Positions 3,153 through 28,446 of a stretch of 32,000 bases of DNA are shown piece by piece; position 1 is the first letter of the stretch; every line of letters starts with the position of its first letter. The stretch spans positions 101,771 through 133,770 of the forward strand of contig JAKOTQ010000096.1 of the NCBI GenBank assembly GCA_029776205.1, in the 5' to 3' direction. Position numbers and translations under genes: made by a program. Origin of the DNA: Bacillota bacterium. Lineage in GTDB: Bacteria > Bacillota > UBA4882 > UBA8346. Below the pieces are notes generated by a model. The model made no database searches. It was given only the letters and a program-made list of their open reading frames with translations, and was not told where the DNA came from.

Positions 3153-3353
3153 TTAATTCTTTGAGGAATCATCCTTCCGTTTTGTCTTAAGTTCTTCCGG
3201 AAGAATAATTTCCGTTATTTCGATGGCCCGAAAATCTGCATCACCTAAGCATCGGCAACAATTATCACAAATCTTTTCCTCATCCAAATCACACCGTTCA
3301 CACCCGCCACATTCTCGGCAGATCTGCCCAGCTTCCAAAATACACTCTTTCAA
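3153..3353 (-). CDS. Small cysteine-rich protein (9 Cys in the first 35 residues), function unknown
   Basis: 66-aa ORF MKECILEAGQICRECGGCERCDLDEEKICDNCCRC... with a CxxCxxCxxC core and a CxxCCxC motif, followed by an acidic/basic tail. It has its own terminator. I do not recognise the family. Confidence 0.55.
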   Translation of the reverse strand: MKECILEAGQICRECGGCERCDLDEEKICDNCCRCLGDADFRAIEITEIILPEELKTKRKDDSSKN

Positions 3354-3441
3354 AGAAATCGCCTCTTTCCTGGAGAAATTCAGCCCGCCAAAAAGGTTTT
3401 CCTGTTTTCAACGCGAAAATATTCAAAATGGAGGGATCAGG

Positions 3442-3714
3442 ATGCTCTATGCTGCGTCAGTCAAAATTACCCATGGCAAGAACCAGCGTCGGCTTGATTT
3501 GGTGGTTGAAGCTGTTTCTCCCGAAGAAGCAGAAACCAAGGCTCTCAAACAAGCCCGCAAAATGTATTGCCCCGGTAAAAAAGCAATTTATACCATAATG
3601 ACATTAATCGACGAAACCGAAGCCATGGCCGCATTTAACAGCCCCTCTTCCCAAGTTCCGGAGGAAACGGCTTCGGCTCAACAGGATGAGGACCCATACT
3701 CCCACGACCTCTAG
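3442..3714 (+). CDS. Hypothetical protein (90 aa)
   Basis: The ATG at 3442 is preceded by GGAGGG. The translation is MLYAASVKITHGKNQRRLDLVVEAVSPEEAETKALKQARKMY.... The upstream part of the ORF-track frame (from 3223) is antisense to the Cys-rich gene and is unlikely to be translated. Confidence 0.45.
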   Translation: MLYAASVKITHGKNQRRLDLVVEAVSPEEAETKALKQARKMYCPGKKAIYTIMTLIDETEAMAAFNSPSSQVPEETASAQQDEDPYSHDL

Positions 3715-5167: not shown

Positions 5168-6424
5168 CTAAAATTTTATCCCAAAGGACAATTCCAGAGA
5201 ATCTTCGGCATGATCATAACTGAGCTCGGTCTTAAAGCAACAAGATTCTTTGGAAATAGAATAAATTTGATGGATCCAGCCGGTATCATCACTATTATAT
5301 ACGCCGTTCAATCCTACCATATGTCCGTCTCCAAAGGGCAACCGCAGATCATACAACCAGTTATCCCCCAAGCCGTAATCCTCCATCAAATCGCCATATT
5401 CCCGTGAGGTATGCGAATCAATCCTCAAATAACTTAACGTAACATTGGAGGAGAGCTTGTAATCCAACTGCCAACCTGTATAAAAACCGCCATATTCCTG
5501 AAATTCTTCAGTTTTACTGACTTCTCTGGCCAAAGCGCTTACCTGCCATGAACCCCATGAAGTCTCCCAATATTTCCGGGTCACCTTAGCTCCATACTGT
5601 TTTTCTCCACCCGCTGAAAAGTCATGGAATACATCAAGAGTAAACAACCAATTGGAATCATCATAGACCAGTTTATCGATAAATGCCCAACCGGCATCCG
5701 AACTATACTCAAATTTCAATTGATTTTGCAGTCCCTGATGATTTGATTCCCAACCAATGCCTAACGTTGACTCACCATGAACAGACAAATCTCCGTCAAT
5801 AACCAAACCTGAATTCGCAGTAAGTTCGGCAAGATAATCAAAGGCATACTTCAATCCATCATCATTGCTGTAACCGATACGGAATTCCGGCATCTTACGA
5901 TCTAAATTTAATGTCAACCGCGGTAAATAAAAAACGGGAACTTCCTTGATTTTTAAAACAACGCGTTCCAGATGAATCTTTTCCCCTTCAATCGTCACTT
6001 CTTTCGCAGAAATATGATAATGAGGGTGGTCAAGTTCACACCGGGTCAAAGCAACCCCTGATATCGTCGATTTTTCATCGGAAAGAGTGACTGAAGTCCC
6101 AGATAATTGGATATTACGTTCTGAATAAATGGTTCCATTAAAAGCGGTCATTACTCCAGACGATTTTTGCATATCATAGGTGATAGATTCGGTATGATAA
6201 ACCATATCACCGGTGGTTACCTTCACTGATCCTGTGGCTTCAATGACACCGGTCTCTGTATCATAGGTTACATCATCCGCTTCGATCCGAATCTTTTCTC
6301 CATTGATGATCACTCTTTCGGAAACTTCGCTTCCGTCAGTTGCGGCAACACAACTTCCAACAGCGAAAACCAGTATCGAAACCACAATTACGACTTTGAT
6401 GTTTAAGAATTTAATTATCATCAA
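5168..6424 (-). CDS. Compact LptD-like LPS-assembly outer-membrane protein (OstA-like N-domain plus small beta-barrel)
   Basis: A signal sequence is present. An OstA/LptD jellyroll-like N-domain follows (IRIEADDVTYDTETGVIEATGSVKV..., ...LTRCELDHPHYHISAKEVTIEG...VPVFYLPRL), matching the LptD TxC...W.i.A..i...PvfY.P signature. The C-terminal half has alternating hydrophobic beta-strand patterns and ends in a C-terminal Phe (SFGIKF), the OMP beta-signal. Confidence 0.65.
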   Translation of the reverse strand: MMIIKFLNIKVVIVVSILVFAVGSCVAATDGSEVSERVIINGEKIRIEADDVTYDTETGVIEATGSVKVTTGDMVYHTESITYDMQKSSGVMTAFNGTIYSERNIQLSGTSVTLSDEKSTISGVALTRCELDHPHYHISAKEVTIEGEKIHLERVVLKIKEVPVFYLPRLTLNLDRKMPEFRIGYSNDDGLKYAFDYLAELTANSGLVIDGDLSVHGESTLGIGWESNHQGLQNQLKFEYSSDAGWAFIDKLVYDDSNWLFTLDVFHDFSAGGEKQYGAKVTRKYWETSWGSWQVSALAREVSKTEEFQEYGGFYTGWQLDYKLSSNVTLSYLRIDSHTSREYGDLMEDYGLGDNWLYDLRLPFGDGHMVGLNGVYNSDDTGWIHQIYSISKESCCFKTELSYDHAEDSLELSFGIKF

Positions 6425-6431
6425 CCTCCGG

Positions 6432-7349
6432 TCATTCTAATAACGTAAATACCCGAACCGATTCTGTAACTTCCAAATAAAACTCGGTATCTGTCGGAAT
6501 TTCTCTCTCCTTCCCTTTGACCGCTAAACCAATCAAAATACCTTCCGGGCCAAAGGCTAACATTCCCGCAGTACTGGCTCCAACAACCCAACGTCGGGAA
6601 TGGCCACTATCTCGAGCCTTTAAACTATAGCCCACTTTAACCGACGTCCCGTCTAATGCCCGTATTTCACGAAAATCCAAGGTTAAACGGGCATCATTTC
6701 CTAATTTCTCAGGGCGTTTAACGGTTTTTAAAACGCCCCGGCCAATCATTCCCACCGGAAAAATCACTTGTCGGCCTTGATAGACCGTCTCCATGACTTC
6801 GTAACGAAATTCATCGCCAACTTTATTGGTTGCCGAATGAATCGGATCAATCATTTTCACTTTAACCCGAAGGCCTTCCGGTATTGTCACCCAGGCGCTT
6901 TTTACCACCCCGTCAGGGAAGATTTGACTGATTAACTTCTCCAGCCGCTGATTTAAAGGCCCATTAAACTTACGTTGAAATAAGGTCATTTCGATATTAC
7001 CGGTTCTGTCAATCAGCGCTCCGGAATCAGACGCTTTATAAATCAGCCATTCCAATGCCTGAACTTTATAAATTAACGAAATATCATGGGGCTTATTGAC
7101 AAACATTAATTGATCAAGATATGTCAGGCGTTTCACCAGATTTTCATCGCGGTTTTTCCCAATCAATGTTTCTTCCAGCCGATTCAACCGCTCAAACACC
7201 CCACCCTTACTAGGGCTGCCATAGGTTTCCGTTTCTAACCGATCAAGCCATTCCAATGGATTTTGAGCTGAAGTTTCAGCAAAAGCCAGAGCCGTTGCCA
7301 ACAAAATGGCAATCATCCCTACCAGCGCTATCCTGCCTACCCTGTTCAT
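6432..7349 (-). CDS. Secreted/periplasmic protein of unknown function
   Basis: 305 aa. It has an SPase-I type signal peptide (...LATALAFA/ETSAQ) with no lipobox Cys. The N-terminal half carries repeated RL..LE helical motifs (LDRLETETYG, LNRLEETLIG, NQRLEKLISQIF). The C-terminal half is beta-rich. It lies 7 nt upstream of the LptD-like gene. Confidence 0.7.
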   Translation of the reverse strand: MNRVGRIALVGMIAILLATALAFAETSAQNPLEWLDRLETETYGSPSKGGVFERLNRLEETLIGKNRDENLVKRLTYLDQLMFVNKPHDISLIYKVQALEWLIYKASDSGALIDRTGNIEMTLFQRKFNGPLNQRLEKLISQIFPDGVVKSAWVTIPEGLRVKVKMIDPIHSATNKVGDEFRYEVMETVYQGRQVIFPVGMIGRGVLKTVKRPEKLGNDARLTLDFREIRALDGTSVKVGYSLKARDSGHSRRWVVGASTAGMLAFGPEGILIGLAVKGKEREIPTDTEFYLEVTESVRVFTLLE

Positions 7350-7361
7350 TTGTCCCCCTCT

Positions 7362-8729
7362 TTAGAAACGAAAAGTTAAAGCACCTGTTACCACCGGATC
7401 GTCAAAATCCAATAATTGATAAGCGAGCCAAAATGTAACCCACTTATCATATTCCAATCCGATCGAGGTTGTACTGATCAATCCGGAATTCACTCTGGAA
7501 TTGACAAAAGATTGATAGGTTAACAACGTCCAATATCCATTCACCTGATGACTAATACCGGCGCTTGCTTTGGTATCGGACGGTAAAAAACTTTCAAACA
7601 AAGCTTTGTCTCCGGATTCCCGGTAAATCAAGTCAAGTCCGCCATAAACTGATGTTTGAGAGTTAATGGCCAAGGACCCGTGAATATTAATTTGTAAAGA
7701 TTCCAAAGAACTATTGGTAATTCGGTCCAAATCAACTGCACCCGAAGGTTGGGCTTGAGGTAAGGTATAAAAAGGCAGCCCAAAATCGATGGTTTCAAAA
7801 TTGGTTACCGCCGGTGTTTGCGAAAAGAGCAAAAGTCCACCCACTTTTAACCCATGTTGAATATTTCCCAACAACGTCCTGGACTGCAAATTGGTTTCCT
7901 TGCGGATATATCCGCTCAAGGGAAGCATCCCTTCAAATCGCCATAAATGTTCAATTTGTTGAATTTGATTCACTTCATCCAACAAGCTAAGCACGGCGTC
8001 TTCCGACTGGACCAGTGAATTTGGAGCGTCTGCTTCCACCGGAAACAGGTAATACCCTTTGATTAGCTGTTCATCGGATACCGGAAGTTCACCGCGAATC
8101 ACCAAATATGAACGTTCTTCCCCAAGTTGCTCGGAAGAAAGCAGGTTCAGATTACTGACCGACCCTTCCAGCAACATCATATCTTGAGGATTGATAAATG
8201 AATCCGGAAGAAACACAAAAGATTTCCGTTTCCAGGATTGCAAATACTCTCCAAAATAATAAAAGGGCTCAAGCGGTGCATTTTTCAACTCTGCTTTTTT
8301 ATCTTTAAACAGTAAATCTAGATCCTGATATTCCCCTTCAGTATCAGCCACCGCTACATTGGGACTGATTTTGTTGATATCGGTGATTTTTATTCCCAAC
8401 GCCTCAAGCTCCACCCGAAACTCCGATATCAACCTTTGTAATGCCATTTCAACCGACAGTTCTGTCAAACTCAGGTGTTCATCATTGAGCTTAAAGGTTA
8501 TGATTTGCTTTATGTAATATGCAATTTCAAAACGGGATAAATAATTTCCTGATTGAACCCACTCATAGGGATAATTATCTAACAATCCTTCATGATAAAG
8601 AACTGATAATTCCTGATAAACCCATCGATCGACAAAAAAGACCTCAGGGGTTTGGGCCATGCAAAATCCAGTAAACAACAGGCACATAAACCCAATCAAC
8701 AGTGTCCGTCGAAACCTTCGTTTTCGCAA
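7362..8729 (-). CDS. OmpM-like outer-membrane protein (degenerate SLH-like N-domain, coiled-coil linker, beta-barrel)
   Basis: A signal peptide is present. An SLH-like segment follows (FVDRWVYQELSVLYHEGLLDNYP...YLSRFEIAYYIKQII), then a helical linker. The C-terminal region is beta-strand rich and ends ...GALTFRF (terminal Phe beta-signal). The architecture is as described for OmpM tethers of diderm Firmicutes. Confidence 0.5.
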   Translation of the reverse strand: MRKRRFRRTLLIGFMCLLFTGFCMAQTPEVFFVDRWVYQELSVLYHEGLLDNYPYEWVQSGNYLSRFEIAYYIKQIITFKLNDEHLSLTELSVEMALQRLISEFRVELEALGIKITDINKISPNVAVADTEGEYQDLDLLFKDKKAELKNAPLEPFYYFGEYLQSWKRKSFVFLPDSFINPQDMMLLEGSVSNLNLLSSEQLGEERSYLVIRGELPVSDEQLIKGYYLFPVEADAPNSLVQSEDAVLSLLDEVNQIQQIEHLWRFEGMLPLSGYIRKETNLQSRTLLGNIQHGLKVGGLLLFSQTPAVTNFETIDFGLPFYTLPQAQPSGAVDLDRITNSSLESLQINIHGSLAINSQTSVYGGLDLIYRESGDKALFESFLPSDTKASAGISHQVNGYWTLLTYQSFVNSRVNSGLISTTSIGLEYDKWVTFWLAYQLLDFDDPVVTGALTFRF

Positions 8730-8754: not shown

Positions 8755-9162
8755 CTACCTATGCTTACGTTTTGCCAAATACCGTTCAGCTAAAATAACC
8801 GCCACATAATCATCATAAGGCCGGTCCGGTGTCCGCAGTCCCAAGGGCAGCAATCGCTTTAAGCCTCTCGAATTTTCCCGCAAGTATCGCATCCGCCCTT
8901 CAATGCTCGACCGATCCTCATTCACCATTTCGATAGGCAACTGGAAATCTCTTAAAATTTTCCTATACACTTTGCTATGGGTCCGATCACCCAAAACAAT
9001 ACATTCGACGGCATATTTGGCAATGAGTTGTTCCACAGTGGTCCGAAGTTCCTCAAAGGCAATCACCTTTTGGGTTAACGGAATTCCTTCTTCATTCACC
9101 ACTGCCACACCGCATTTCTGATGTCCCGGATCAATGGCTAAAATATTAGACACTAAAGCCAC
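8755..9162 (-). CDS. YqgF/RuvX-like RNase H-fold (Holliday-junction-resolvase-like) protein
   Basis: 135 aa. The N-terminus ILAIDPGHQKCGVAVV resembles the RuvX/YqgF catalytic-Asp motif. An internal IVLGDRT motif is present. It is separated by 2 nt from the upstream DUF3084-like gene. Confidence 0.55.
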   Translation of the reverse strand: MALVSNILAIDPGHQKCGVAVVNEEGIPLTQKVIAFEELRTTVEQLIAKYAVECIVLGDRTHSKVYRKILRDFQLPIEMVNEDRSSIEGRMRYLRENSRGLKRLLPLGLRTPDRPYDDYVAVILAERYLAKRKHR

Positions 9163-9164
9163 TC

Positions 9165-10421
9165 CTACATTTTCTTCAGATCAAGTTTTACCTTAAATTG
9201 ATCGATCCGATAAATATCTCCATCAGCGATCAACCTGATTTTAAAGGTCGCCTCAGGATGAGCTTTAATTTCATTGATTAATTTAACCATTTCGGAAACA
9301 GATACCAAATCTTTTAAATCGTCACTGTCGACACCGCGTTCAATCGCCTTATGATTCGCCAGAATCAACAAGCTTAAAATGTGATCCCGAATCGTGGATT
9401 CCGCCGTTTTCCCTACAACTTGGGTTTCGGCGAGCACATCACCGTTTTTAAATACAACTTCATTGGGATAAACCTCAATCGTCGCCGTTACCGGTTCTTC
9501 AGCAACTGAATTTTTCTCAACAACCACACGAACCAATGCTTTCTGTTTCAACTCCGACAACTGGACGCATACTTCAGCCACTTTTCTCGGCGTAACACGT
9601 AAAGCATAATCGGCTTTTCCGGGAATCCGGGCACCGCGATTGACGGCAATTTTATTGGCTTCATTTAACATCGGCTCAACAACAGCTTCAAATACTTTAT
9701 CCGCTGATATTCCTGGCTCAACGACTTTTGACGTTAAGATCTCACCCACCAAAAAAAGCATCGGTTTGCTGATTAATGTCTGATTTTGATCACTTAAATT
9801 GCTTAATTGCATCAAACGGTTTTCCAAGTTTTCGATTTGCTGTGTATACCGGCTGATCTCTGCTTCTTTATTGATGATATCATTGGTCAAATCAACCCGG
9901 ATGCGGGAGAGATTGGTCACCCGTTCCTGATTAACCTTCAGTTCTTCCTGTTTGACTTGCAGCTCTTTTTCTTTTGCTGCCAATTCTTTCAGCTTCACTT
10001 CCAACTCTTTGGCAACTTTCTGCTGCTCAGTCCGGGTCTTTTCCAGTTGCTCTTCAATTTCTTCTTTTTGAGCCTGCAATTGAAGGTGCTTTTGGGATAA
10101 TCCGGTATATTCTTCCTCCTTTTTCACCATCTGTTTAGTAAGAATGTTTACTTTTTGGGTCGTTGCTTTAAGACTAATTTGAATATTGTGTAATTCGAAA
10201 ATAGCAGTCCGAACATATTCCGACATCAACGTTAAGATCAAAAGCGTCAGTCCGGCAATGAAAAATCCTGTCAATACGGTAATGATCATAGAGGTATATT
10301 TCGGGCGCAGGCCAAAAAGAGTCAGTCGTTTTTTGCCGACCTTCATCCCCACTCGGTCGCCTAATAACGCCAGACCGCCGCCAAATACTATAATAAGAAT
10401 AATGATAAAAAAGCCAAACAA
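9165..10421 (-). CDS. DUF3084-like membrane protein with long coiled coil
   Basis: 418 aa. There are two N-terminal TM helices. An approximately 130-residue E/K/Q/L-rich coiled coil follows (KEEEYTGLSQKHLQLQAQKEEIEEQLEKTRTEQQKVAKELEVKLKELAAKEKELQVKQEELK). A globular C-terminal domain completes the protein. The family assignment is from memory of the DUF3084 architecture. Confidence 0.55.
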   Translation of the reverse strand: MFGFFIIILIIVFGGGLALLGDRVGMKVGKKRLTLFGLRPKYTSMIITVLTGFFIAGLTLLILTLMSEYVRTAIFELHNIQISLKATTQKVNILTKQMVKKEEEYTGLSQKHLQLQAQKEEIEEQLEKTRTEQQKVAKELEVKLKELAAKEKELQVKQEELKVNQERVTNLSRIRVDLTNDIINKEAEISRYTQQIENLENRLMQLSNLSDQNQTLISKPMLFLVGEILTSKVVEPGISADKVFEAVVEPMLNEANKIAVNRGARIPGKADYALRVTPRKVAEVCVQLSELKQKALVRVVVEKNSVAEEPVTATIEVYPNEVVFKNGDVLAETQVVGKTAESTIRDHILSLLILANHKAIERGVDSDDLKDLVSVSEMVKLINEIKAHPEATFKIRLIADGDIYRIDQFKVKLDLKKM

Positions 10422-10432
10422 TTATTCCACTC

Positions 10433-11521
10433 CTAAATCTTAACGTTCACGGATAGATAAACCCCATAACCGGCCAATAAAATATTGGGAAGCCAAGCGC
10501 CGATCACGGGAGGAATCACTCCGGCACGAGCCATATAGGAACCGATCCCCATAAAGGAATACCATAACAAAATAAAAACAATACACAATCCGAACCCGGC
10601 TGCATTGGACCGGCGCTGCGGGCGCAGCGCAAGGGGTGCTCCCAGCCAGGCCAATATTAAAGCAGCAAAAGGAACGGCAAATTTGAGATGATAATCAACC
10701 AATAAACGCTGGCGCTCCGAACCTTTGGGATAATATTTATCTATAAATTCCCGTAACTCAGTGATGCTTTTCCGATCCGCATCCTCGGTGTCCTCATCGA
10801 TCTCTTTCGGAGTGATACTGAGATCATATTTGACAAATCCTTTTTTGACCGTAATTGGATAAAAACTCTCTTCACCAAGCTGATAAATCAAACCATCCCG
10901 GAAAAACCATCCCTGCCCGTCCCAGGACATCACTTCAGTGGTGATAACCCGGATCAACTTTTGATCTTCAAATTCTTCGATGGTTACCTGGTGCAACTCC
11001 TGAGTCTTGGAGTCAAACCGGGCTGCATAAACTCTTTTGTCGATCTGCCCGGTATCCGTGTCATAAAAATCTTTACTAAAGTTATAAAGCACTACGGACT
11101 TTTCAGCTTTGCTCGCTTCGCTTTTGACATTGTAATACGCTTTCAAGCCTAAAGGCACCAGGTATTGGTTCATTAAAACACCGCTAATGCTGACAACAGT
11201 TCCAATAATAATCACTGGCAGCACTAACCGGAAATAGTTGAGACCTCCAGACCGCATGGCAATAGTTTCGCTATGGCTGGTCAACTTGCCAAGGCCCAGT
11301 AAAGTCGCCATCAAAACGGCAATCGGCGCTGCCTGAACGATATACTCCGGCATCCGTGCAAACAACATTTGCAAAACATACCAAAAGGACAGATGATATC
11401 TCTCAGCATGCTTCAGGATGCTTAAGAAGGTCACCCCGGAAAACATGCTGGTAAAAGCGAACAGCGCAAAGAATAAAGGTCCCATAATTTCTTTGAGAAT
11501 ATATTTAGTCAGAATCTTCAA
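10433..11521 (-). CDS. LPS export ABC permease, LptF/LptG (YjgP/YjgQ) family
   Basis: 362 aa. It starts MKILTKYILKEI...GPLFF, typical of the LptF/G family. It has 3 TM helices, then an approximately 140-aa periplasmic jellyroll insert, then 3 more TM helices. It lies directly downstream of lptB. Confidence 0.85.
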   Translation of the reverse strand: MKILTKYILKEIMGPLFFALFAFTSMFSGVTFLSILKHAERYHLSFWYVLQMLFARMPEYIVQAAPIAVLMATLLGLGKLTSHSETIAMRSGGLNYFRLVLPVIIIGTVVSISGVLMNQYLVPLGLKAYYNVKSEASKAEKSVVLYNFSKDFYDTDTGQIDKRVYAARFDSKTQELHQVTIEEFEDQKLIRVITTEVMSWDGQGWFFRDGLIYQLGEESFYPITVKKGFVKYDLSITPKEIDEDTEDADRKSITELREFIDKYYPKGSERQRLLVDYHLKFAVPFAALILAWLGAPLALRPQRRSNAAGFGLCIVFILLWYSFMGIGSYMARAGVIPPVIGAWLPNILLAGYGVYLSVNVKI

Positions 11522-16114: not shown

Positions 16115-16984
16115 TTAAGAACGACTAATATCCTTCGTAGCTTGCTGCATAGCAATTTTTTTCGCCAATTCCCAATCCAACTTATGCCCGGAACGGATCG
16201 CGATCACATGTCCGCGAAGAGGCCCTACTAAATAAAGATCGCCCATAATGTCTAAGATCTTATGACGGACAATTTCTTCAGGATAACGCAGTTCATTTTG
16301 GTATCCATCATCTCCGACGACCACAACGCAGTTGAGATCGCCCCCCAAAGCCAGACCTTGACTTTGAAGATACTCAATCTCCCGCAGAAATCCAACGGTT
16401 CGGGCAGATGCAATCTCCTTCAGAAATTTATCAGGACTGGCCTCAAAATGGTAATACTGAGTTCCGGTCACTTTATGGTCCGAGGTAAAGGTAAAACTGA
16501 CCTCAAAACGATCCGACGGCAGAATAACGAGCATCGCCTTGGCCGGAATGTCTTGTTTATAAACTACCCCTTCAACCCAAAGCGGTTCTTTGACCACAGT
16601 ATATTGACGGGGTGCATTTTGAGTAACTAGGCCGGTTTTCATGATCTCCTCAGCGAAGAAACGAGCACTGCCGTCTCCCACCGGAATTTCTTCCCCGTCG
16701 ACTCCAACCAGAACATTGTCAATACCCAAGCCATGAAAAGTCGCCATCAAGTGTTCAATGGTTGATATTTTCCATCCATCCTTGCCAATGGTTGTGCTTC
16801 GTTCAGTACTTACCACGGCATGGACATCCGCTTTGATCGATGGCTGGCCCGGTAAGTCGAGCCGTTGAAACACCACGCCGGTATTTTCCGGCTGAGGTGA
16901 TATTTGCATAGTGACCCTTTGTCCACTGTGGAGTCCCTGACCGGAAATCATCGTTGTCGCAGCCACAGTTTGTTGATAATCCAT
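16115..16984 (-). CDS. lpxC: UDP-3-O-acyl-N-acetylglucosamine deacetylase LpxC
   Basis: Starting at the ATG at 16984 (GGGGG 5 nt upstream) gives MDYQQTVAATTMISGQGLHSG.... The spacing to GxGLHSG then matches E. coli LpxC. Other motifs present: TIEHLMA, GHKLD. The longer ORF (to 17179) would overlap the ABC ATPase and swallow a consensus promoter. Confidence 0.9.
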   Translation of the reverse strand: MDYQQTVAATTMISGQGLHSGQRVTMQISPQPENTGVVFQRLDLPGQPSIKADVHAVVSTERSTTIGKDGWKISTIEHLMATFHGLGIDNVLVGVDGEEIPVGDGSARFFAEEIMKTGLVTQNAPRQYTVVKEPLWVEGVVYKQDIPAKAMLVILPSDRFEVSFTFTSDHKVTGTQYYHFEASPDKFLKEIASARTVGFLREIEYLQSQGLALGGDLNCVVVVGDDGYQNELRYPEEIVRHKILDIMGDLYLVGPLRGHVIAIRSGHKLDWELAKKIAMQQATKDISRS

Positions 16985-17092
16985 TGTTACCCCCATTTTG
17001 AGCCGGTTCACCGCCCTTGGCAAACCGGAAATTTCTTTATTAGTAGCTACAATGGTTCCATTATATCCTACATCAGAAACAATACTCCCAAA

Positions 17093-17121
17093 ATTATAAG
17101 TCAACACACTATTCCTGTCAA
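17093..17121 (-). promoter_or_regulatory. Consensus sigma-A promoter for lpxC-fabZ
   Basis: The minus strand reads TTGACA (17121-17116), then exactly 17 nt, then TATAAT (17098-17093). It begins 3 nt after the stop of the ABC ATPase. The implied lpxC 5' leader is about 100 nt. Confidence 0.6.
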
Positions 17122-17123
17122 TA

Positions 17124-17861
17124 TTAGTGACGTAAAAGGCTCTGATACTTTCGCCCGATTTCTGAAACCGGCTGTTCAAATACTATTTCCGGCGGCCCTG
17201 ATTCCACAATTTGGCCTTTATCCATAAAAACGATGCGATCTGCCGCCCGTCGGGCAAAGGACAATTCATGAGTGACAATAACCATGGTGGTTCGTCCTTC
17301 GCTCACCAATTCTTCCATAACCTCAATGACCTCCCCAACCAGGATCGGATCAAGGGAAGCCGTAGGTTCGTCCCAAAGCATAATCTCAGGCTCTAAAGCA
17401 AGAGCTCGGGCAATGCCGACACGCTGCTGCTCTCCGCCGCTAAGTTCATTCGGTTTTTCCCGAAGTTTATGGCCAAGCCCCACTTTTCCCAAAGCAATCT
17501 CCGCACGGCCGTTGGCTTCTTCCACATCCATCCCGTGAAGGCGAAGGGCCATAGCTACATTATCCAAAGCGCTTAAACGCTGAATTAAATTGAAATGTTG
17601 AAACACAAACCCAATTTTGCGGCGAGCTTCCAACAGGTGAGGCAAGTCCAATCCGGTAATCAGTTGTCCCCCGACGATCACTTCCCCGGCATCGGGTTCA
17701 GTCAACCGGTTGATACACCGAATCGTCGTGGACTTGCCACATCCGCTGGGCCCCATAATGACCACGGTCTCACCCCGGGCAACCTCAAGGTCTACCCCGT
17801 TCAAAGCCCGCTTATGGCCGTAATTTTTATATAATCCATGAATTTGTAACATCATTTTCAC
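17124..17861 (-). CDS. ABC transporter ATP-binding protein, MetN/GlnQ-like (type I importer-style NBD, no C-terminal regulatory domain)
   Basis: Motifs present: Walker [38 protein letters not shown], signature [15 protein letters not shown], Walker [15 protein letters not shown]-loop IVTHE. The true start is probably the ATG at 17852 (MLQIHGL...), with AGGTG 7 nt upstream. The ORF-track start is a GTG. Confidence 0.9.
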
Positions 17862-17904
17862 CTGCTTGCTTTCTTTTATCCATTCCCTAATGTCGATGAT
17901 TTAT

Positions 17905-20433
17905 TTACCTCAACTGCATTTTCCACCGGTTCAGGATTTGCAGCATGCCAGGACGGCCCGCCGGAATCACAATCTCCCGCATAATGGTTTTAAACGGCAG
18001 ACCCAGAGACAATCCGGCCATGATTTCATCCTGATTAATCGGATTAATCTTCTCAGCCAATATCGAAATGAAGATCCCCAACACGCCACCGATAATTCCC
18101 AAATGCCAAAGTTGAAGATAAGGAACTTCCGCTCCGGCCAACCAGAAAGTCATCACCAGCCAAACCCCGCCAATAACGAAGGCATAAAGATTGGCGGCAC
18201 TGAATATCTTTTGAATCAATTGATATCCTTTCTTCATTAAACCGCTGCGGAAATCAACATGTTTCGGAAGGAACGAAAACCGCATCTGCTTCAACATGGA
18301 AATGATCAACGAATGATCCAGGATAAAGGTTAAAATCCACAAAATCGTAACGACCAACGCAGCAATGACCGAACGGACTTCACCTAAGATCTTATAGAGT
18401 TCGCCTCGGACATCCAATTGAATGGTACCGGCAGGAAGCGTGGAAATTCCCACTTCAGAATCGCCCACAGCGTCTTTAATAGCTGCGTCAACCACCGTCC
18501 GATCCACATTGGCTTTGGTAAAGATCTGAATCCGATCCCCGGTGGAAGCATCTCCGCCGCCGACATATTTATCGATCAATTCAACTGAATTGCCGATTTC
18601 TTCATCCAGCAAATTCGGCAGCGAATTTTTAACCTTTTCCAGTTCGGTAATGAGCGCTGACAAATCCACCTTATCGGAACCGAATATCCGATCGGTAACC
18701 ACAGAAAGCCCACTCTTCACTTCATCCATATCAAACCCGGTAATACCGGAAAGCACCTCGTCGGTTGAATCGATCAGGTCCATCATCTGCTCGTAATTCT
18801 CACTACCCGGCGTAAAGACAGCGCCAAAATCATTGACCTGTTCTGCAAAGGCATTTGCCTTATTCCGCCAGGAAACCAAGACCGATACCAACGGATTAAA
18901 CTGATTGATAAAATCATCCAGCTTCTGGACACGGGAACGTAACGATTCCTCAACCGAGGTCAATTGATCATTCAAAGACACCAATTTATCGAAAACTCCT
19001 CCGGTGCCGCTGAATGCATTTTGCAGCATCGGACTGCCGATAACTAATTGAGCAGTATCTAATCCATTTAACGCCTGTTCGAAACGGTTTTCCAGGATCT
19101 GAACCCGGCCGAAATTTTTCGCCAGGTAATCCAGATCATCCCCGACCCCGCTGATCAGGTTAACCATCTTACTCAAACTGCTATTATCAACTTTACCGGT
19201 CAATCCGTTAATCCCCGATTTCATGCCTCCCAATGCCTGCTTCACTTGAACCAGTTGCTTATAAGCCTTTTCAATGCCGCTAACCGTAAGTCCGGCGCCA
19301 CCGGTGGAGTTATTGTAATCTTCCACTGCCTGATCCAATTTGGTTAACAACTTGACTCCCTGATCCATCGCATAAACTAATTGCGCTTTTCTGCTGGAGA
19401 CTTCAACCGTTCCAACGACAGAGCCAATTTTGTCATTGGTTAGTAGTTTATAAGCGGACATATCCGTCAAATACTCGGCATCTCCCTGAATGATCAATCC
19501 TTGGACTCCGGAAGAATCCACCGACGTCACTTTCACAACGACATTCAATGGCTCCATGACACCGCCGGCTTTCAACGGTTTCTCGTTTTTTCCGTTCAAC
19601 ACCAACAGATCGCCGACTTCCAGAGTTTGTCCCTCAGCCGGAACCACTTTCACTTCCGCTGCATAAGACAGTAAAAATTTCTTCACTTCCGATAGTGTAT
19701 TCATCAAATACTGATAATCGCCGGAACTACCGGACATAGTAATATCTTTGGCATAATCGATTCCTTTGATTCCAATTAACGATTGGGAAACATTTTTACT
19801 CAACGTGAGCAGATCTTCCGATGAATAGGACCCCTTTTCAAGGCGGACCTCTAAAATCTGATACTTATTGAGGATTTGCTTAATTCCATCTTCAACTTCC
19901 GTTGCAACTTTGGAGCTTTTCATGATGACGCCCATATTGCTCCCATCATGGAAAGTGAAATCGACTCCAGGAAGTTTCTCAACTTCACTAGCGATCACAT
20001 CAAATATCGCCGACGGAATACTAGTAATATGCAATTTCGGCTCGGTCATAATCGAAAAACTGCCGCTTCCGGGGAGGCTTTTGAAGTAGTAGTCGAGATT
20101 ATCAAATACCTCTTTCGTATGGTACTTTGACGGCAGAGTAACAAAGAATGTGGATTTCCCGGCAACAGTAATCCCCGGTTTTAATGTAGCACCAGGAAAA
20201 CGTTCCGCGATAACCTCCTTAATCCGCCGTGCCAGAGCAGTTTTCAATTCCTCTCGGCCCTGGAAGAGAAGGTCATACTCACCATAATCACCGATAACGC
20301 CAGTGACCGCTTTCGCAAAATATTTATCGGTGGCCATGGCAAAACCGGCGGCAAACACGGCTGAAACCACAATGCCAACCAAGAGTAAAATCGTTATGTC
20401 TTTTACAAATGTATCTTTCCTTAAAATTTTCAT
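17905..20433 (-). CDS. 842-aa membrane protein: N-terminal TM, ~650-aa ectodomain, three C-terminal TMs, terminal EAA-like ABC coupling loop (atypical ABC membrane component)
   Basis: An RBS GGAGGAG precedes the ATG at 20433. TM1 is ITILLLVGIVVSAVFAAGFAMA. The long region that follows has no hydrophobic helices and contains helical, heptad-like G/S/N/D/L-rich stretches. Three TM helices occur within roughly the last 150 residues. Residues about 802-831, DEIMAGLSLGLPFKTIMREIVIPAGRPGML (nt 17941-18030), fit G-x9-I-x-(L/I)P of the EAA loop. The ORF stops 11 codons later. Confidence 0.8.
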   Translation of the reverse strand: MKILRKDTFVKDITILLLVGIVVSAVFAAGFAMATDKYFAKAVTGVIGDYGEYDLLFQGREELKTALARRIKEVIAERFPGATLKPGITVAGKSTFFVTLPSKYHTKEVFDNLDYYFKSLPGSGSFSIMTEPKLHITSIPSAIFDVIASEVEKLPGVDFTFHDGSNMGVIMKSSKVATEVEDGIKQILNKYQILEVRLEKGSYSSEDLLTLSKNVSQSLIGIKGIDYAKDITMSGSSGDYQYLMNTLSEVKKFLLSYAAEVKVVPAEGQTLEVGDLLVLNGKNEKPLKAGGVMEPLNVVVKVTSVDSSGVQGLIIQGDAEYLTDMSAYKLLTNDKIGSVVGTVEVSSRKAQLVYAMDQGVKLLTKLDQAVEDYNNSTGGAGLTVSGIEKAYKQLVQVKQALGGMKSGINGLTGKVDNSSLSKMVNLISGVGDDLDYLAKNFGRVQILENRFEQALNGLDTAQLVIGSPMLQNAFSGTGGVFDKLVSLNDQLTSVEESLRSRVQKLDDFINQFNPLVSVLVSWRNKANAFAEQVNDFGAVFTPGSENYEQMMDLIDSTDEVLSGITGFDMDEVKSGLSVVTDRIFGSDKVDLSALITELEKVKNSLPNLLDEEIGNSVELIDKYVGGGDASTGDRIQIFTKANVDRTVVDAAIKDAVGDSEVGISTLPAGTIQLDVRGELYKILGEVRSVIAALVVTILWILTFILDHSLIISMLKQMRFSFLPKHVDFRSGLMKKGYQLIQKIFSAANLYAFVIGGVWLVMTFWLAGAEVPYLQLWHLGIIGGVLGIFISILAEKINPINQDEIMAGLSLGLPFKTIMREIVIPAGRPGMLQILNRWKMQLR

Positions 20434-20456
20434 TGCTTACTCCTCCATCGGCATCG

Positions 20457-20465
20457 ATTATACCA
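20457..20465 (-). promoter_or_regulatory. Extended -10 promoter (TGgTATAAT) for the ABC pair
   Basis: The minus strand reads aTGgTATAAT (plus coordinates 20465-20457), about 24 nt before the ATG at 20433. The -35 is poor, which is compatible with an extended -10 promoter. Confidence 0.45.
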
Positions 20466-20560
20466 TATAAAACGTAAACAAAGGGAACAAATTACCCATT
20501 TTAGCTGCATAAATATATGGAAACGATGGTAGAAAACGAACAAATGAAACAATAAATGAT

Positions 20561-20861
20561 AGGTACTGAGTACTAGATTATAGGTCCGGCCCAGGGTCCT
20601 GGGTACTAGGTCCTGGACACTGAGTGCGGGATACCGGAGGCTGGATAAGAGACAGGATTCAGGAGCTTAAAATAGTTAACAGTTGAGACAGCGGACAGTT
20701 CGCAGTTATATGTAAAGGTAAAAGGTTAAAGCTCGAACTTTATATGAACTATGAATTAAAACCAAGTATCTAATCGATTAATTGTCAACTGTAAACTGTA
20801 CTATACTCGTGCCTCATGCCTCAAAAATATACTATGAACTGTACGCTATGAACTAAGAACC
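20561..20861. repeat. Modular 'stuttering' intergenic repeat block A
   Basis: About 300 nt of non-coding sequence built from short words, each repeated 2-3 times locally. Examples: ggtactgagtactag; ggtcctgggtactaggtcctgg; acagttgagacagcggacagttcgcagtt; gtaaaggtaaaaggttaaag; aactgtaaactgta; tgcctcatgcctca; ctatgaactgtacgctatgaact. It shares exact words with blocks B and C; block D is linked to the family through block C. Confidence 0.6.
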
Positions 20862-20880
20862 AAAAACTCTAGGCTTTCCC

Positions 20881-20911
20881 AAAAATAGAAGAAGGCAGCT
20901 TTGGCTGCCTT
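20881..20911 (-). terminator. Intrinsic terminator after the 162-aa SPOCS gene
   Basis: An 8-bp stem (aaggcagc/gctgcctt, 20892-20899 and 20904-20911) flanks a 4-nt loop. On the minus strand it is followed by cttctattttt. It lies 10 nt after the stop codon. Confidence 0.7.
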
Positions 20912-20921
20912 ATCGTTTAGG

Positions 20922-21410
20922 TCAACGTACCAGCACCCCGCTGGCCCGCGCCCGGACTGTATTGGGTTCTCCGAAAACCACCGGCTGGGTTGGTAAGGTC
21001 TGATTAAACACGAGAGTCTGTACCGGAGTATCGAAAACAGTTACTCCCATGGCAATCACGACCGTTTCCCGTAATTGCGTCGGTGTAACCAATTCAAAAC
21101 TCAAAAATTCGATCTCGGGATCCAACTGACAGGCGGAACCCGCCGGAACTCCGGGAACGTCCACAAATCCGCTGAAAGGGATATCGACACCGACATGCCG
21201 GACAACACCTTCCAAATCCACAAAGAATATCTGTTTATGCAATGTTCCTTGAAAAATGACTTTGTTATCGATGACAAAACAATGGGCATCCCGGATACTA
21301 GCAACGATCTCATCAATTTTTTCAGCCGGAAGGGGGAGAGTCACCACATCATCGACTAGGACCTGAGCGGTTGTTTCCGCCAGAACTGCCATATTAACAC
21401 CCTCTTCCAT
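20922..21410 (-). CDS. SPOCS (DUF3794) domain protein, sporulation-associated
   Basis: 162 aa. It carries the motif pattern LPLPAEKIDEIVASIRDAHCFVIDNKVIFQGTLHKQIFFV, the same as the repeats in the neighbouring 559-aa protein. The start could instead be the ATG at 21392 (MAVLAE...), which follows GAGGGTG. Confidence 0.7.
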   Translation of the reverse strand: MEEGVNMAVLAETTAQVLVDDVVTLPLPAEKIDEIVASIRDAHCFVIDNKVIFQGTLHKQIFFVDLEGVVRHVGVDIPFSGFVDVPGVPAGSACQLDPEIEFLSFELVTPTQLRETVVIAMGVTVFDTPVQTLVFNQTLPTQPVVFGEPNTVRARASGVLVR

Positions 21411-21518
21411 TATCGGTTCCTTTGAAAACCGGTTTCATTGAACTCGGTTAATATATCATATGAGCCTTTAACCTTAGGCAAACCGTGCCGGAAGCATTTT
21501 ACATATTCCTTTAAATCC

Positions 21519-21549
21519 AAAATAAAAGAGAGCCGGGTCAATGGCTCTC
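21519..21549 (-). terminator. Intrinsic terminator downstream of the SipL-like gene
   Basis: The minus strand reads gagagcc-attgaccc-ggctctc (plus 21528-21534 and 21543-21549), followed by ttttatttt (plus 21519-21527). Confidence 0.65.
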
Positions 21550-21583
21550 GCAAATCAAGGCATATAATATCTCCCATTAGCTT

Positions 21584-21638
21584 CATGTACGGCACAGGCA
21601 TGCCTGTGCCGTACATGAGCATGCCTATTCCGTATATG
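21584..21638. repeat. Perfect 34-nt palindrome plus a third degenerate half-site
   Basis: Positions 21584-21617, catgtacggcacaggca|tgcctgtgccgtacatg, are exactly self-complementary. Positions 21619-21638 (gcatgcctattccgtatatg) repeat 21598-21617 (gcatgcctgtgccgtacatg) with 4 mismatches. The element lies between the SipL-like stop (21650) and its terminator. Confidence 0.85.
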
Positions 21639-21649
21639 GATCTTTTCTA

Positions 21650-23329
21650 TCATCCAATCCTCTTCGGAATAATCAGCTTCTGCCCAATCTCAAGGCGCGA
21701 CGGATCAAGGATCTGATTGGCTCTCACCAAACTATCGACAGTGGTTTGATACCGCCGGGCAATTCCCCACAACGTATCACCCGGTTGCACCAAATAGAAG
21801 AGCATCGATGGCCGGGTTTCCGGATCCGCCGGTATGACCAATGCACAATTTTCAACCGCCATCACGGAACGGGGACTTTTAGCTATAACTGTTGCCCGAA
21901 GGGTTCCAGTTAGCTCTAAAGTCCTTTCTCCGGCAATCTGAAGCTTAACCGATTCCAACTCCAATTGGGGCCAAAGTGATGATTCTGCCGTTAACCCGGA
22001 AAATTCGAGCATTCCAGTTAAAGGTAACTGATTATGATTTGCCCGCTGCCAATGAGCAACCGCCAGGCGTTGCTCTAAAATACCATCAGCCACATACTCC
22101 ACCCAAAGATTCAATCCGCCATCGATAAAAACCTTACCATCCCCAGCTTCAACCTTAAGATCAACCGGCGTTACCGTATAAGCCAATATCCGTTCTATGG
22201 CCGGTAAATTGGAAGGCAAAACTGCTTCCGCCTCAAATGGGACATCTCCGCGAATCTCACCAACATGCTCTTCAAAATTGACTAACTGCCGCTCGATATC
22301 GATGATTTCGCCGGACTCAGCCTTTACATCCACTACAATTTCTTTGACGGCAGTCCGTAAAACATGGGCTTCTCCTAAGATTTCAATTTGGCAACGGATC
22401 TCACGACTTGATTTTTGTCCGACCTGAACATCACCGAGAGTAATTTTGGGAATAACCACTCCTTGTTCCGGCTTAATCCGTTCCAGCCCTACTTCCACCG
22501 GAATGGCATTTCCAAATTCGCGGCTCCACTCATTGACAAATATCTCTGTAGCCCGGCCTTCATCATCGCAGCCCACGTAAACCAAGGTTACTTCCAAAAA
22601 TCCTTGAACCCCATCAGCGCCAGCTTGGACTGCCGTTTCCACCGGTTTAATCTGATAATCCAAAATACGTTGAATACCAGGTTTTAAATTAGGTAATGTC
22701 AACGTATACTCCAGATTTAAACGAGCTTGTTTATGCTCGATCATTTCTTCGACAACGACCTGTTCTTTTTCCACATTCAGTTGGCCAACTGGCTGAAGTT
22801 CCTTGACAAAGGCCCGGTTTTCCGCGATCGCCCCCCGAAGGGTCACCTCTAATTCGCCTCGGAAAACAACCTCATGAGCTCCGTCCCGTTCAAATGAAAC
22901 CGTCAGCGGATTAACGGCCACATCAACATAGGCTCCTGGGAAAATCCCCGGATACTCGATGGTTTCTTGAAAAGGAATTCCATGATCGCCGTTCCATCCA
23001 ACCCCATACTCCAACGGCGGTTGAAAGTTCATCTCCAATCCTTCAGAATTAATGTCCTCATCATTCAGCTTATCCGTTTCTTCAATAGCAACCGTCTCAT
23101 CCGAAATAGCCACGTACAGCAAATACGGATACACCATGCCGGAGATGGTCACCTGATTTTCGCCGACGCTTACCAAGGGTATCCCGGTGCGGAAATACCC
23201 TCCCTTGAGCCGGCTAATCACAGGGAGTTCATCACTGACATGCAAACGAGTCTCCAGTGTAATTCTTTGAGAGATTTCCTCCTTAAATCCGGACGCAGTT
23301 ATCAGATCATATTCACATTGAATACTCAT
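21650..23329 (-). CDS. Multi-SPOCS (DUF3794) protein with C-terminal LysM domain (SipL/SpoVID-like spore coat morphogenetic protein)
   Basis: 559 aa, with GGAGG 6 nt before the ATG. Internal repeats are present (LPNLKPGIQRILDYQIKPVETAVQAG... and LPSNLPAIERILAYTVTPVDLKVEAG...). The C-terminus YLVQPGDTLWGIARRYQTTVDSLVRANQILDPSRLEIGQKLIIP is a canonical LysM. Confidence 0.8.
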   Translation of the reverse strand: MSIQCEYDLITASGFKEEISQRITLETRLHVSDELPVISRLKGGYFRTGIPLVSVGENQVTISGMVYPYLLYVAISDETVAIEETDKLNDEDINSEGLEMNFQPPLEYGVGWNGDHGIPFQETIEYPGIFPGAYVDVAVNPLTVSFERDGAHEVVFRGELEVTLRGAIAENRAFVKELQPVGQLNVEKEQVVVEEMIEHKQARLNLEYTLTLPNLKPGIQRILDYQIKPVETAVQAGADGVQGFLEVTLVYVGCDDEGRATEIFVNEWSREFGNAIPVEVGLERIKPEQGVVIPKITLGDVQVGQKSSREIRCQIEILGEAHVLRTAVKEIVVDVKAESGEIIDIERQLVNFEEHVGEIRGDVPFEAEAVLPSNLPAIERILAYTVTPVDLKVEAGDGKVFIDGGLNLWVEYVADGILEQRLAVAHWQRANHNQLPLTGMLEFSGLTAESSLWPQLELESVKLQIAGERTLELTGTLRATVIAKSPRSVMAVENCALVIPADPETRPSMLFYLVQPGDTLWGIARRYQTTVDSLVRANQILDPSRLEIGQKLIIPKRIG

Positions 23330-27629: not shown

Positions 27630-28064
27630 TTGAAACATTGGCTGCCTTTTATCATGGCTGCAGTGGCAGGCGCATTAATGGCTGTTCAGGGGACATTCAA
27701 CAGTATTCTGTCGAAAATCATTGGATTACTAGAGGGTACTTTCGTGGTCCATCTCATCGGAACCCTTGCCGCAGGCCTGATTATGCTGATTATGGGTAAC
27801 GGCCATTTTAGCAAAGCAGCTCAGGTACCATGGTATAGTTGGCTTGGTGGTTTAATCGGAGTGATCATCATTATCGGGGTGGCCGTCAGTATTCCCAAAT
27901 TAGGCGTTGGAATGGCCACCACCGCTATTATTGCCGCCCAATTACTCACGGCTTATCTAATTGATCATTTTGGCTGGTTTGGGATGGAACCCATTGAGTT
28001 TAACTTTTGGAAGGCTGTCGGGATCATCCTCATCGTTACAGGAGCTAAAATTCTACTGCATTAA
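27630..28064 (+). CDS. DMT-superfamily transporter, DUF606/YdcZ family
   Basis: 144 aa with 5 TM helices. A TTG start follows AGGAGG. The sequence pattern is GALMAVQGTFNS...G...THLIGT...W.WLGGLIG...IP.LG.... Confidence 0.7.
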   Translation: MKHWLPFIMAAVAGALMAVQGTFNSILSKIIGLLEGTFVVHLIGTLAAGLIMLIMGNGHFSKAAQVPWYSWLGGLIGVIIIIGVAVSIPKLGVGMATTAIIAAQLLTAYLIDHFGWFGMEPIEFNFWKAVGIILIVTGAKILLH

Positions 28065-28080
28065 CATCTAAACATCAAAG

Positions 28081-28446
28081 TTAATTATCGAGTAATTTAC
28101 CGATAACCTCTCTAACCTTGCCTTCATTGAAGGGTTTCACAATAAAATTACATGCCCCAGCTTCAATGGCTTCTAAAACCAAAGCTTTCTGTCCCATAGC
28201 GGAACACATGACAATCTTGGCTTTAGGATCCAATATTCGAATCGAACGAACCGCCTGGATTCCGTCCATTTCAGGCATGGTAATATCCATCGTTACCAAA
28301 TCCGGGCGGCATTCCTGATACTTTACAACAGCTTCTTTACCGTTGGTAGCTTCAGCAATCACTTCATAACCAATGGATTGTAACATATTTTTTAACATCA
28401 TCCGCATTACGGCGGCATCATCCACAATCATAATCCGCTTTGCCAT
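28081..28446 (-). CDS. cheY: CheY-like single-domain response regulator
   Basis: 121 aa. Starts MAKRIMIVDDAAVMRMMLKNML. Contains DLVTMDITMPEMDG (phospho-acceptor Asp), CSAMG and FIVKPF, which is the CheY pattern. There is no output domain. Confidence 0.85.
   Translation of the reverse strand: MAKRIMIVDDAAVMRMMLKNMLQSIGYEVIAEATNGKEAVVKYQECRPDLVTMDITMPEMDGIQAVRSIRILDPKAKIVMCSAMGQKALVLEAIEAGACNFIVKPFNEGKVREVIGKLLDN

Follow-up and report, generated by a model that had tools for sequence, protein, structure and literature searches.

A conserved two-gene ABC system with a four-helix membrane subunit beside lpxC in diderm Bacillota, a probable periplasm-directed mechanotransducer

The stretch of DNA analyzed in this work, hereafter the window, covers 32,000 nucleotides of a Bacillota bacterium (assembly GCA_029776205.1, contig JAKOTQ010000096.1, positions 101,771 to 133,770) and carries, next to lpxC, a gene for an 842-aa membrane protein followed by a gene for a 245-aa ATPase of the ATP-binding cassette (ABC) type (Table 1). 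Judged by sequence comparison, the pair is real and conserved, a two-gene ABC system that has so far gone unnamed and whose membrane subunit is unusual; the membrane protein is covered by no entry of Pfam, NCBIfam or the PDB, in keeping with an earlier reading of the letters without database searches (the original prediction), which had taken the pair to be an undescribed ABC machine. The two open reading frames (ORFs) are as described there, including the gap of 43 nt between them, if GTG 17861 is taken as the ATPase start; it should be noted that the likelier start is the ATG at 17855/17852, six bases past the GTG and with an AGGTGA Shine-Dalgarno sequence in front.

The neighborhood of the pair is a lipopolysaccharide (LPS) and outer membrane (OM) cluster. 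On the same strand the pair is followed by lpxC, fabZ, lpxA, lpxI, an LptC-like and an LptA-like gene, lptB and a single lptF/G, and then by a DUF3084 gene, a RuvX/COG0816-like gene, two unannotated ORFs and an LptD_N-like ORF. On its 5' side lie two SipL/SPOCS genes, one with LysM, and a PG_binding_1 gene (Pfam), but a terminator-like hairpin with a T-run ends the upstream SipL gene and the pair therefore begins a new transcription unit. The extended -10 promoter attributed to the pair was found as TGGTATAAT, which the consensus scan had missed because of its weak -35; the 842-aa gene then has the ribosome-binding site GGAGGAG at 20440-20446 and an ATG at 20433. The listed lpxC ORF (16115-17179, minus strand) begins with TTG 17179 and overlaps the stop of the ATPase, yet its start is probably ATG 16984, since the Pfam LpxC match begins only at residue 69 of the long ORF, and a perfect promoter sits within the 139-nt spacer which then separates the ATPase stop from lpxC. 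As originally stated, there is no gene for a substrate-binding protein (SBP): Pfam detected no such gene or domain among 22 of the 25 non-embedded window ORFs of at least 120 aa (3223..3714 produced no match; 27630..28064 and 28081..28446 lay outside the scan).

Table 1. Position and basis of the features of the ABC pair and its immediate surroundings in the window (TM, transmembrane helix; AF2, AlphaFold2).
Feature	Coordinates	Strand	Basis
842-aa membrane subunit of the ABC pair	17905..20433	minus	ORF list
ABC ATPase, 245 aa, PF00005	17124..17861	minus	ORF list; Pfam
lpxC	16115..16984 (likely start ATG 16984)	minus	Pfam LpxC, 1.5e-91
Perfect promoter, TTGACA-17-TATAAT	17093..17121	minus	Consensus scan, 12/12 matches
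Extended -10 element TGGTATAAT ahead of the pair, poor -35	20457..20465	minus	Read in the sequence
Terminator-like hairpin and T-run, end of upstream SipL gene	20892..20911	minus	Terminator scan
N-terminal cytoplasmic motif RKDTFVKD and TM1 (aa 9-47)	20293..20409	minus	Hydropathy; AF2 helix 9-47
Ectodomain, aa 48-674 (~630 aa)	18412..20292	minus	AF2 secondary structure; conservation and gap profile
TM2 (aa 675-717), cytoplasmic loop (718-744), TM3 (745-768), TM4 (775-797)	18043..18411	minus	Hydropathy; AF2; alignment
EAA-type coupling loop, aa 799-832	17938..18039	minus	hhalign; sub-threshold BPD_transp_1; conservation 0.64

Hydropathy places TM segments of the 842-aa protein only at residues 13-31, 688-706, ~745-767 and ~775-796, and the secondary structure of an AF2 model run with 37 homologs (mean pLDDT 71) agrees with this, which bears out the proposed order of one N-terminal helix, a long non-hydrophobic region and three further helices. 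In the model TM1 is a long helix running on into the periplasm, and the ectodomain consists, in order, of alpha/beta modules (residues 55-230), a beta-rich domain (260-346), a bundle of nine helices, two of them of ~50 residues (348-624), and a beta-alpha-beta-beta module (634-673), followed after the membrane helices by three short C-terminal helices (801-809, 814-822 and 830-841), the first two of which fall within the coupling loop. The middle of the bundle (416-540) is variable or absent among relatives. The G/S/N/D/L-rich, heptad-like stretch noted originally is present as LVSLNDQLTSVEESLRSRVQKLDDFINQF at residues 484-512, these five amino acids making up 46% of residues 348-630 vs 39% of the whole protein. 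The window protein indeed has no cysteine, but its close homologs have 0-3 and the lack of cysteine is thus not a family trait. In the family alignment D706 of TM2 is invariant and TM4 carries G782-x3-G786, while the cytoplasmic loop between TM2 and TM3 is poorly conserved. TM1 is probably an uncleaved anchor, since D12 and F9 are conserved and an AXA cleavage site is not. The reading of TM1 as a signal peptide, to which AMA-TD in the window protein could point, was rejected for the lack of a conserved AXA together with the conservation of the cytoplasmic N-terminal motif. Profile searches of PDB sequences, run with either the C-terminal or the full family alignment, returned nothing or coiled-coil noise.

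Profile comparison shows the C-terminal segment to be a homolog of the EAA coupling loop found in type I ABC importers. Alignment by hhalign of the family C-terminus with the Escherichia coli permeases MetI, GlnP, ArtM, ArtQ, HisM and HisQ (sequences from MG1655) gave a probability of 94.6% (E 6.4e-8) and set window residues 799-832 onto MetI 115-148; the full-length family profile scored 89% against importer permeases, and FtsX, LolC, LolE and the transmembrane domain (TMD) of MacB gave 7-10%. A permissive alignment extends colinearly, with TM2-4 on MetI TM1-3, and is confident only within the loop. Within it, MAGLSLGLPFKTIMREIVIPA at residues 805-825 matches EAA-x3-G-x9-I-x-LP in register, as the original prediction had seen. 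The "EAA" triplet itself is MAG in the window protein, with an invariant Glu two residues before, but fused relatives from Limnochordaceae have EAARAAG or EAARAFG in the canonical register and an exact EAA-x3-G-x9-V-x-AP motif. While the window membrane protein has no Pfam and no NCBIfam family match, BPD_transp_1 (PF00528) was the only recurrent Pfam family, matching 23 of 60 members (best E 2.7e-4) in their last ~50-90 residues at profile positions ~29-114 of 184. In the 60-member alignment the loop is the most conserved segment, with a mean top-residue frequency of 0.64, against 0.46 for TM1, TM2, TM4 and the ectodomain's first module; conservation is lowest in the cytoplasmic loop between TM2 and TM3 (0.12 with 54% gaps) and midway through the helical region (0.15 with 51% gaps). 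Only a 10-residue tail separates the EAA-type loop from the stop codon. The original statement that the ORF ends 11 codons past the loop stands when counted from GRPGML, but not from MAGLSLGLPFKTIMREIVIPA, after which 17 codons follow.

An abrupt end of this kind could have meant a 3'-truncated pseudogene or an annotation artefact, as the ORF stops where importer permeases would go on with two more helices. A word-indexed protein search identified 79 clusters, including Hydrogenispora ethanolica, of 830-885 aa apart from two fragments and none with a Pfam domain or an informative name; a second such search with a 60-sequence alignment returned the same 79 proteins and no additions. An exhaustive hidden Markov model (HMM) search of 1.84 billion representatives extended the family to 207 proteins (125 with E-values below 1e-30), the full-length members being ~570-1000 aa long. 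Among representatives whose C-terminus is intact, nearly all stop 10-20 residues past the family motif, E-x2-AG-x-(A/S)LG(L)-x4-(I/V)(M/L)RE(I/V)V(I/V)P-x-(G/A)(R/K)PG-x5-N, and the two helices which follow the EAA loop in importers are missing family-wide; the BPD_transp_1 matches, too, break off at profile position ~112 of 184. Truncation, which the original prediction had named as a refuting condition, is thereby refuted to the point of being practically impossible: 207 representatives have the same architecture, conservation peaks in the last 40 residues and, in natural fusions, the ATPase follows directly. As the best-conserved part of a family of this size, the motif is also more than chance.

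The ATPase has, as originally described, importer-type motifs (LSGGEQQR, Walker A and B, H-loop) and no extra C-terminal domain of a regulatory kind. It matches PF00005 at 8e-36 and shares 46.5% identity with E. coli GlnQ and 45% with HisP, vs 36-38% with FtsE, LolD and MacB, but remains below all NCBIfam equivalog cut-offs, including that of GlnQ (244.8 bits vs a cut-off of 379). By sequence it belongs with the polar-amino-acid importer ATPases, nearest to GlnQ, HisP and ArtP. In every complete locus examined the ATPase gene lies directly 3' of the membrane gene, and in two of them (L001 and L002) the reading frames overlap by 1-4 nt. In at least seven relatives of 930-1000 aa, among them Carboxydochorda subterranea and a Limnochordaceae metagenome-assembled genome, the two proteins are naturally fused, the membrane protein being followed by a ~50-aa low-confidence linker and the ATPase. 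The C. subterranea fusion (locus L093, 9001-11904) is a single 967-aa polypeptide encoded between lptA and lpxC. The AF2 model of one natural fusion (P0197) was somewhat better than that of the window protein (pLDDT 75, TMD 81-92); in Foldseek it matched only with its nucleotide-binding domain (NBD), for which the best matches were the amino acid importer NBDs TTHA1159, Art(QN)2, ArtP and HisP at 42% identity. Gene order, overlaps and fusions all argue that membrane protein and ATPase work together.

The distribution of the family was addressed by scanning GTDB, at one genome per species, for the motif EIV[IV]Px[GA]RPG, which yielded 147 confirmed relatives; the best 80 of these 147 were carried forward, and synteny was determined by tblastn, with the window's own proteins as queries and all fetched loci as targets. 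The original prediction had proposed to look for linkage to lpxC, and linkage was found: the order membrane gene-ATPase-lpxC-fabZ-lpxA(-lpxI) is kept in ~75 of 90 loci, and the place just upstream of lpxC recurs in each diderm Firmicute lineage covered. These span the Hydrogenispora-like lineage (55-90% identity), more distant uncultured Bacillota (30-40%) and Sporomusa, Pelosinus, Anaerospora, Dendrosporobacter and Lucifera (27-32%). The protein of Orenia metallireducens (Halanaerobiales) has the same neighbors as the window pair, and Selenihalanaerobacter also has a family member. In Carboxydochorda, whose outer membrane has been seen by transmission electron microscopy (PMC11456536), the order is bamA-skp-lpxD-...-lptF/G-...-lptC-lptA-[fusion]-lpxC-fabZ-lpxA-lpxI-lpxB-msbA-...-lptB-DUF3084; an unannotated 800-aa ORF (5026-7428 of L093) lies between lptF/G and lptC. 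In Negativicutes skp, lpxD, a YjbH-like gene and lpxL are found upstream of the pair. The one neighbor that never changes, even in rearranged clusters, is lpxC, whereas adjacency to the SipL/SPOCS genes is retained only in the Hydrogenispora-like lineage. Of the diderm profile that had been suggested for the pair, one part stands, in that all organism names on family members are diderm Firmicutes or an unspecific "Bacillota bacterium"; for the contrast with monoderms, the best 80 of 147 relatives, found with one pattern, set the scope. Three loci came from bins labeled Bacteroidota, Patescibacteria and Syntrophothermus (L027, L029 and L040) but show the same lpx synteny with FabZ and LpxA 70-78% identical, and these labels look like binning or annotation errors.

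Taken as a whole, these features suggest that the pair is probably a homodimeric ABC mechanotransducer with four TM helices per membrane subunit, derived from a type I importer and performing ATP-driven work in the periplasm for LPS/OM biogenesis in diderm Bacillota. Two copies of the 842-aa protein and two GlnQ-like ATPases would form a (TMD)2(NBD)2 complex with only eight TM helices, each membrane subunit being predicted to consist of a conserved cytoplasmic N-terminus, TM1, the ~630-aa periplasmic domain, TM2-4 and the C-terminal EAA-type loop. The TM3-TM4-EAA part and the ATPase probably both descend from a polar-amino-acid type I importer, and the family would then have lost the two post-EAA helices and gained an N-terminal helix together with a very large ectodomain. 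The post-EAA helices of importers help to line the translocation path. As there are four helices per subunit (probably eight in the dimer), and the sole conserved cytoplasmic element is C-terminal, a canonical translocation path is unlikely, and the absence of the post-EAA helices makes mechanotransmission likelier than import, which there is no reason to assume without them. ATP binding and hydrolysis would move the EAA loops, presumably docked in the NBD groove, for which the natural fusions and gene overlaps speak indirectly, and thereby shift TM2-4 and the helices that are continuous with the ectodomain. The ectodomain may then extract, push or hand over an envelope lipid species in the periplasm, or alternatively may drive or regulate a periplasmic partner linked to lipid A or LPS production; the fixed place beside lpxC allows lipid handling as well as control of lipid A synthesis. 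A bolder form of the proposal, to which we give somewhat less than even credence, is that the pair represents both a new architectural class of ABC systems, namely a four-helix type I importer derivative with a terminal EAA loop acting as a periplasm-directed mechanotransducer, and an ancestral, overlooked LPS/OM component common to diderm Firmicutes.

A number of observations weigh against the mechanotransducer proposal. The significant homology to importer TMDs spans only 34-80 residues, and all 23 BPD_transp_1 matches among the 60 members are below the PF00528 gathering score of 26.4 bits, the best relative reaching 21.2. A fold search of the ectodomain had been recommended in the original prediction; Foldseek of the full 842-aa model against the PDB gave only helical-bundle matches of low TM-score (HblL1, MakE, ClyA and TolC), none of which accounts for the ectodomain, and no fold could be assigned. 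The pair and lpxC each have their own promoter, and co-regulation with lpxC is hence not implied. The family is not restricted to the LPS locus, given the second copies in some Negativicutes: a second pair distant from lpxC is present in some Sporomusa and Pelosinus genomes (L070, L071, L075, L077, L079 and L082-L085). As the survey used a single motif-dependent peptide pattern and the best 80 of 147 relatives, absence from any clade, such as monoderms or Veillonella-type Negativicutes, cannot be claimed. Finally, a lipid, a lipoprotein or LPS is no more than a candidate substrate.

Four other explanations were considered. The ATPase cycle could control the level or activity of LpxC while the ectodomain monitors periplasmic LPS or the envelope, a role for which the YejM/LapB/FtsH control in E. 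coli would be the functional analogue. ABC systems that signal rather than transport do exist, such as FtsEX and BceAB, and the constancy of lpxC as a neighbor even where the cluster is rearranged speaks for such a sensor; but no proteolysis-linked or LpxC-binding domain was seen, a strong promoter of its own precedes lpxC, paralogous pairs are found at a distance from that gene and, beyond gene order, nothing more specific speaks in its favor, so that we consider a regulator of lipid A synthesis unlikely. An idea to which the original prediction leaned was a substitute for the Lol pathway: in diderm Firmicutes without LolA and LolB, the pair would extract lipoproteins from the inner membrane. 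The TM1-ectodomain-TM2-4 topology is the same as that of LolC and LolE, and LolA/B are lacking in Negativicutes (PMC5007114). This idea is weakened by Orenia, which carries the pair at the same place although it belongs to the Halanaerobiales, where LolA and LolCDE have been reported (PMC5007114), and a pure Lol replacement is consequently less parsimonious; in addition there is no FtsX/LolC homology (hhalign 7-10%) and no lipoprotein genes are linked to the pair, all of which renders this role improbable.

An amino acid importer in which permease and binding domain form one chain, like GlnPQ of lactic acid bacteria, would explain the GlnQ-like ATPase, the EAA-type loop and the annotation of one fused relative as "amino acid ABC transporter ATP-binding protein", and importers with a fused substrate-binding domain (SBD) are known in Firmicutes. 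The ectodomain would in that case be a diverged SBD. The original suggestion that the ectodomain replaces the SBP was not supported, and no SBP homology was found in it: there was no SBP-family match for the window protein, for ten individually scanned relatives or among the 25 most-matched families of 60 members. The AF2 model shows alpha/beta modules and a long helical bundle instead of a two-lobed SBP, the post-EAA helices are absent family-wide and the position in the lipid A/LPS cluster is invariant; we regard a fused-SBD importer as highly improbable. The SipL/SPOCS, LysM and PG_binding_1 proteins encoded upstream in the window, and the fact that many carriers are spore formers, could be taken to indicate an FtsEX-like activator of cell-wall or spore-envelope enzymes. 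As this upstream context occurs only in the Hydrogenispora-like lineage, is separated from the pair by a terminator and is replaced in other lineages by lpxD/lpxL or lptC/lptA, such an activator has very little chance of being correct.

The periplasm-directed mechanotransducer which we favor combines traits of systems that are otherwise distinct. With the type I importers MetNI, GlnPQ, HisQMP and Art(QN)2 the family shares the register of the EAA loop including its LP-x3-PG continuation, pre-loop helices that are colinear with TM1-3 of MetI and an NBD that is 46% identical to GlnQ, but unlike them it lacks the post-EAA helices, has an additional TM at its N-terminus as well as a ~630-aa ectodomain, is accompanied by no SBP gene in related loci or among the window ORFs scanned, scores below the Pfam gathering threshold and is located in an LPS cluster. 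The fused-SBD importers GlnPQ of Lactococcus and OpuA likewise comprise an N-terminal anchor, an extracytoplasmic domain, an importer-type TMD and a GlnQ-like ATPase, but here the ectodomain has neither SBP homology nor an SBP-like secondary structure, and the TMD is incomplete. The Type VII systems MacB, LolCDE and FtsEX also have four TMs per subunit, a large periplasmic domain that separates TM1 from TM2, TM1 and TM2 helices that extend beyond the bilayer and an envelope role without an obvious transmembrane pore. One beta-alpha-beta module after TM1 and another before TM2 recall the split Porter domain and stalk of MacB and LolC, and would be compatible with a Porter/Sabre fold, in order of secondary structure only, the whole-model Foldseek search having given no such match. 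Unlike Type VII proteins, the window protein, ten relatives and the 25 most-matched families of 60 members gave no FtsX (PF02687) match; moreover, the major coupling helix of MacB lies in the TM2-TM3 loop, which corresponds to the least conserved part of our family, whereas the latter would couple through the C-terminal EAA loop, and its NBD is nearer to GlnQ than to LolD, FtsE or MacB. These differences suggest that the mechanotransmission topology may have been reached independently of MacB, LolCDE and FtsEX. With the Mla/MCE systems the family shares the envelope lipid context and a weak match of its helical region to the C-terminal helical part of MCE proteins, and one JGI homolog is labeled MlaD; however, this match (TIGR00996, 22.4 bits vs a cut-off of 140.5) reflects coiled-coil-like sequence only, and neither a Pfam MlaD/MCE domain match nor an MlaE-type permease is present.

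The pair seems, from these comparisons, to offer both a new subunit architecture and a conserved but unexplained place in an envelope cluster for an ABC system. A survey of OM clusters in diderm Firmicutes singled out COG0816, DUF3084 and COG750 as unexplained conserved genes, with the pair not among them, and its supplementary table gives LptB and LolC/E as the only ABC components (PMC5007114); the literature on Acetonema, on Mla of Veillonella and on Limnochordia does not mention the pair, and no description of the family was found there. Diderm Firmicutes are central to the debate over the gain or loss of the outer membrane. To our knowledge, their OM machinery is without BamB-E, LptE, Tol-Pal and, in Negativicutes, Lol. 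A conserved energy-consuming system beside lpxC in Negativicutes, Halanaerobiales, Limnochordia and the Hydrogenispora-like lineage is an obvious candidate for a missing OM function. If the bolder form of our proposal is correct, the pair could for instance supply the energized step that is missing for an envelope lipid or a lipoprotein, or could control LpxC in diderm Firmicutes. The family would also show that the coupling module of a type I importer can drive a four-helix subunit with a giant ectodomain, in parallel to MacB, LolCDE and FtsEX but with an independent origin.

Some further features of the window and the related loci should be recorded. The spacer 5' of the 842-aa gene is unusually long (488 nt, 20434-20921) and contains the ~14-nt word GGTMCTGRGTACTA three times (20562-20622) as well as other short repeats, and the two genes for spore-coat-type SipL/SPOCS proteins directly upstream of it, one with a C-terminal LysM, occupy 20922-23329 (minus strand). 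In Sporomusa rhizae (L071, 871-9096) the second pair follows genes for a TetR regulator, a membrane fusion protein (MFP) and an AcrB-type resistance-nodulation-division (RND) pump, and in Hydrogenispora (L004) an RND operon is situated ~2 kb upstream of the pair; a link of the paralogs to RND efflux was discarded as not general, being based on the one paralog locus and, loosely, on L004. The sole LptF/LptG-family gene of the cluster (10433-11521, minus strand) fits the homodimeric LptF/G reported in Acetonema longum (PMC13018214), and the DUF3084 gene beside the RuvX/COG0816-like gene (8755-10421, minus strand) represents two of the three "new OM-related proteins" flagged in diderm Firmicutes (PMC5007114). 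At the end of the lpt genes (5168-8729, minus strand) there are ORFs of 455 and 305 aa without a Pfam match and one of 418 aa with only a weak LptD_N match, among which there could be an atypical LptD or further OM factors. Scans of the window found no Rfam families and no tRNAs. The GC skew is negative in all 1-kb bins and the minus strand carries 28 of the 29 main ORFs, so that the entire window is likely to be co-oriented with replication on this strand.

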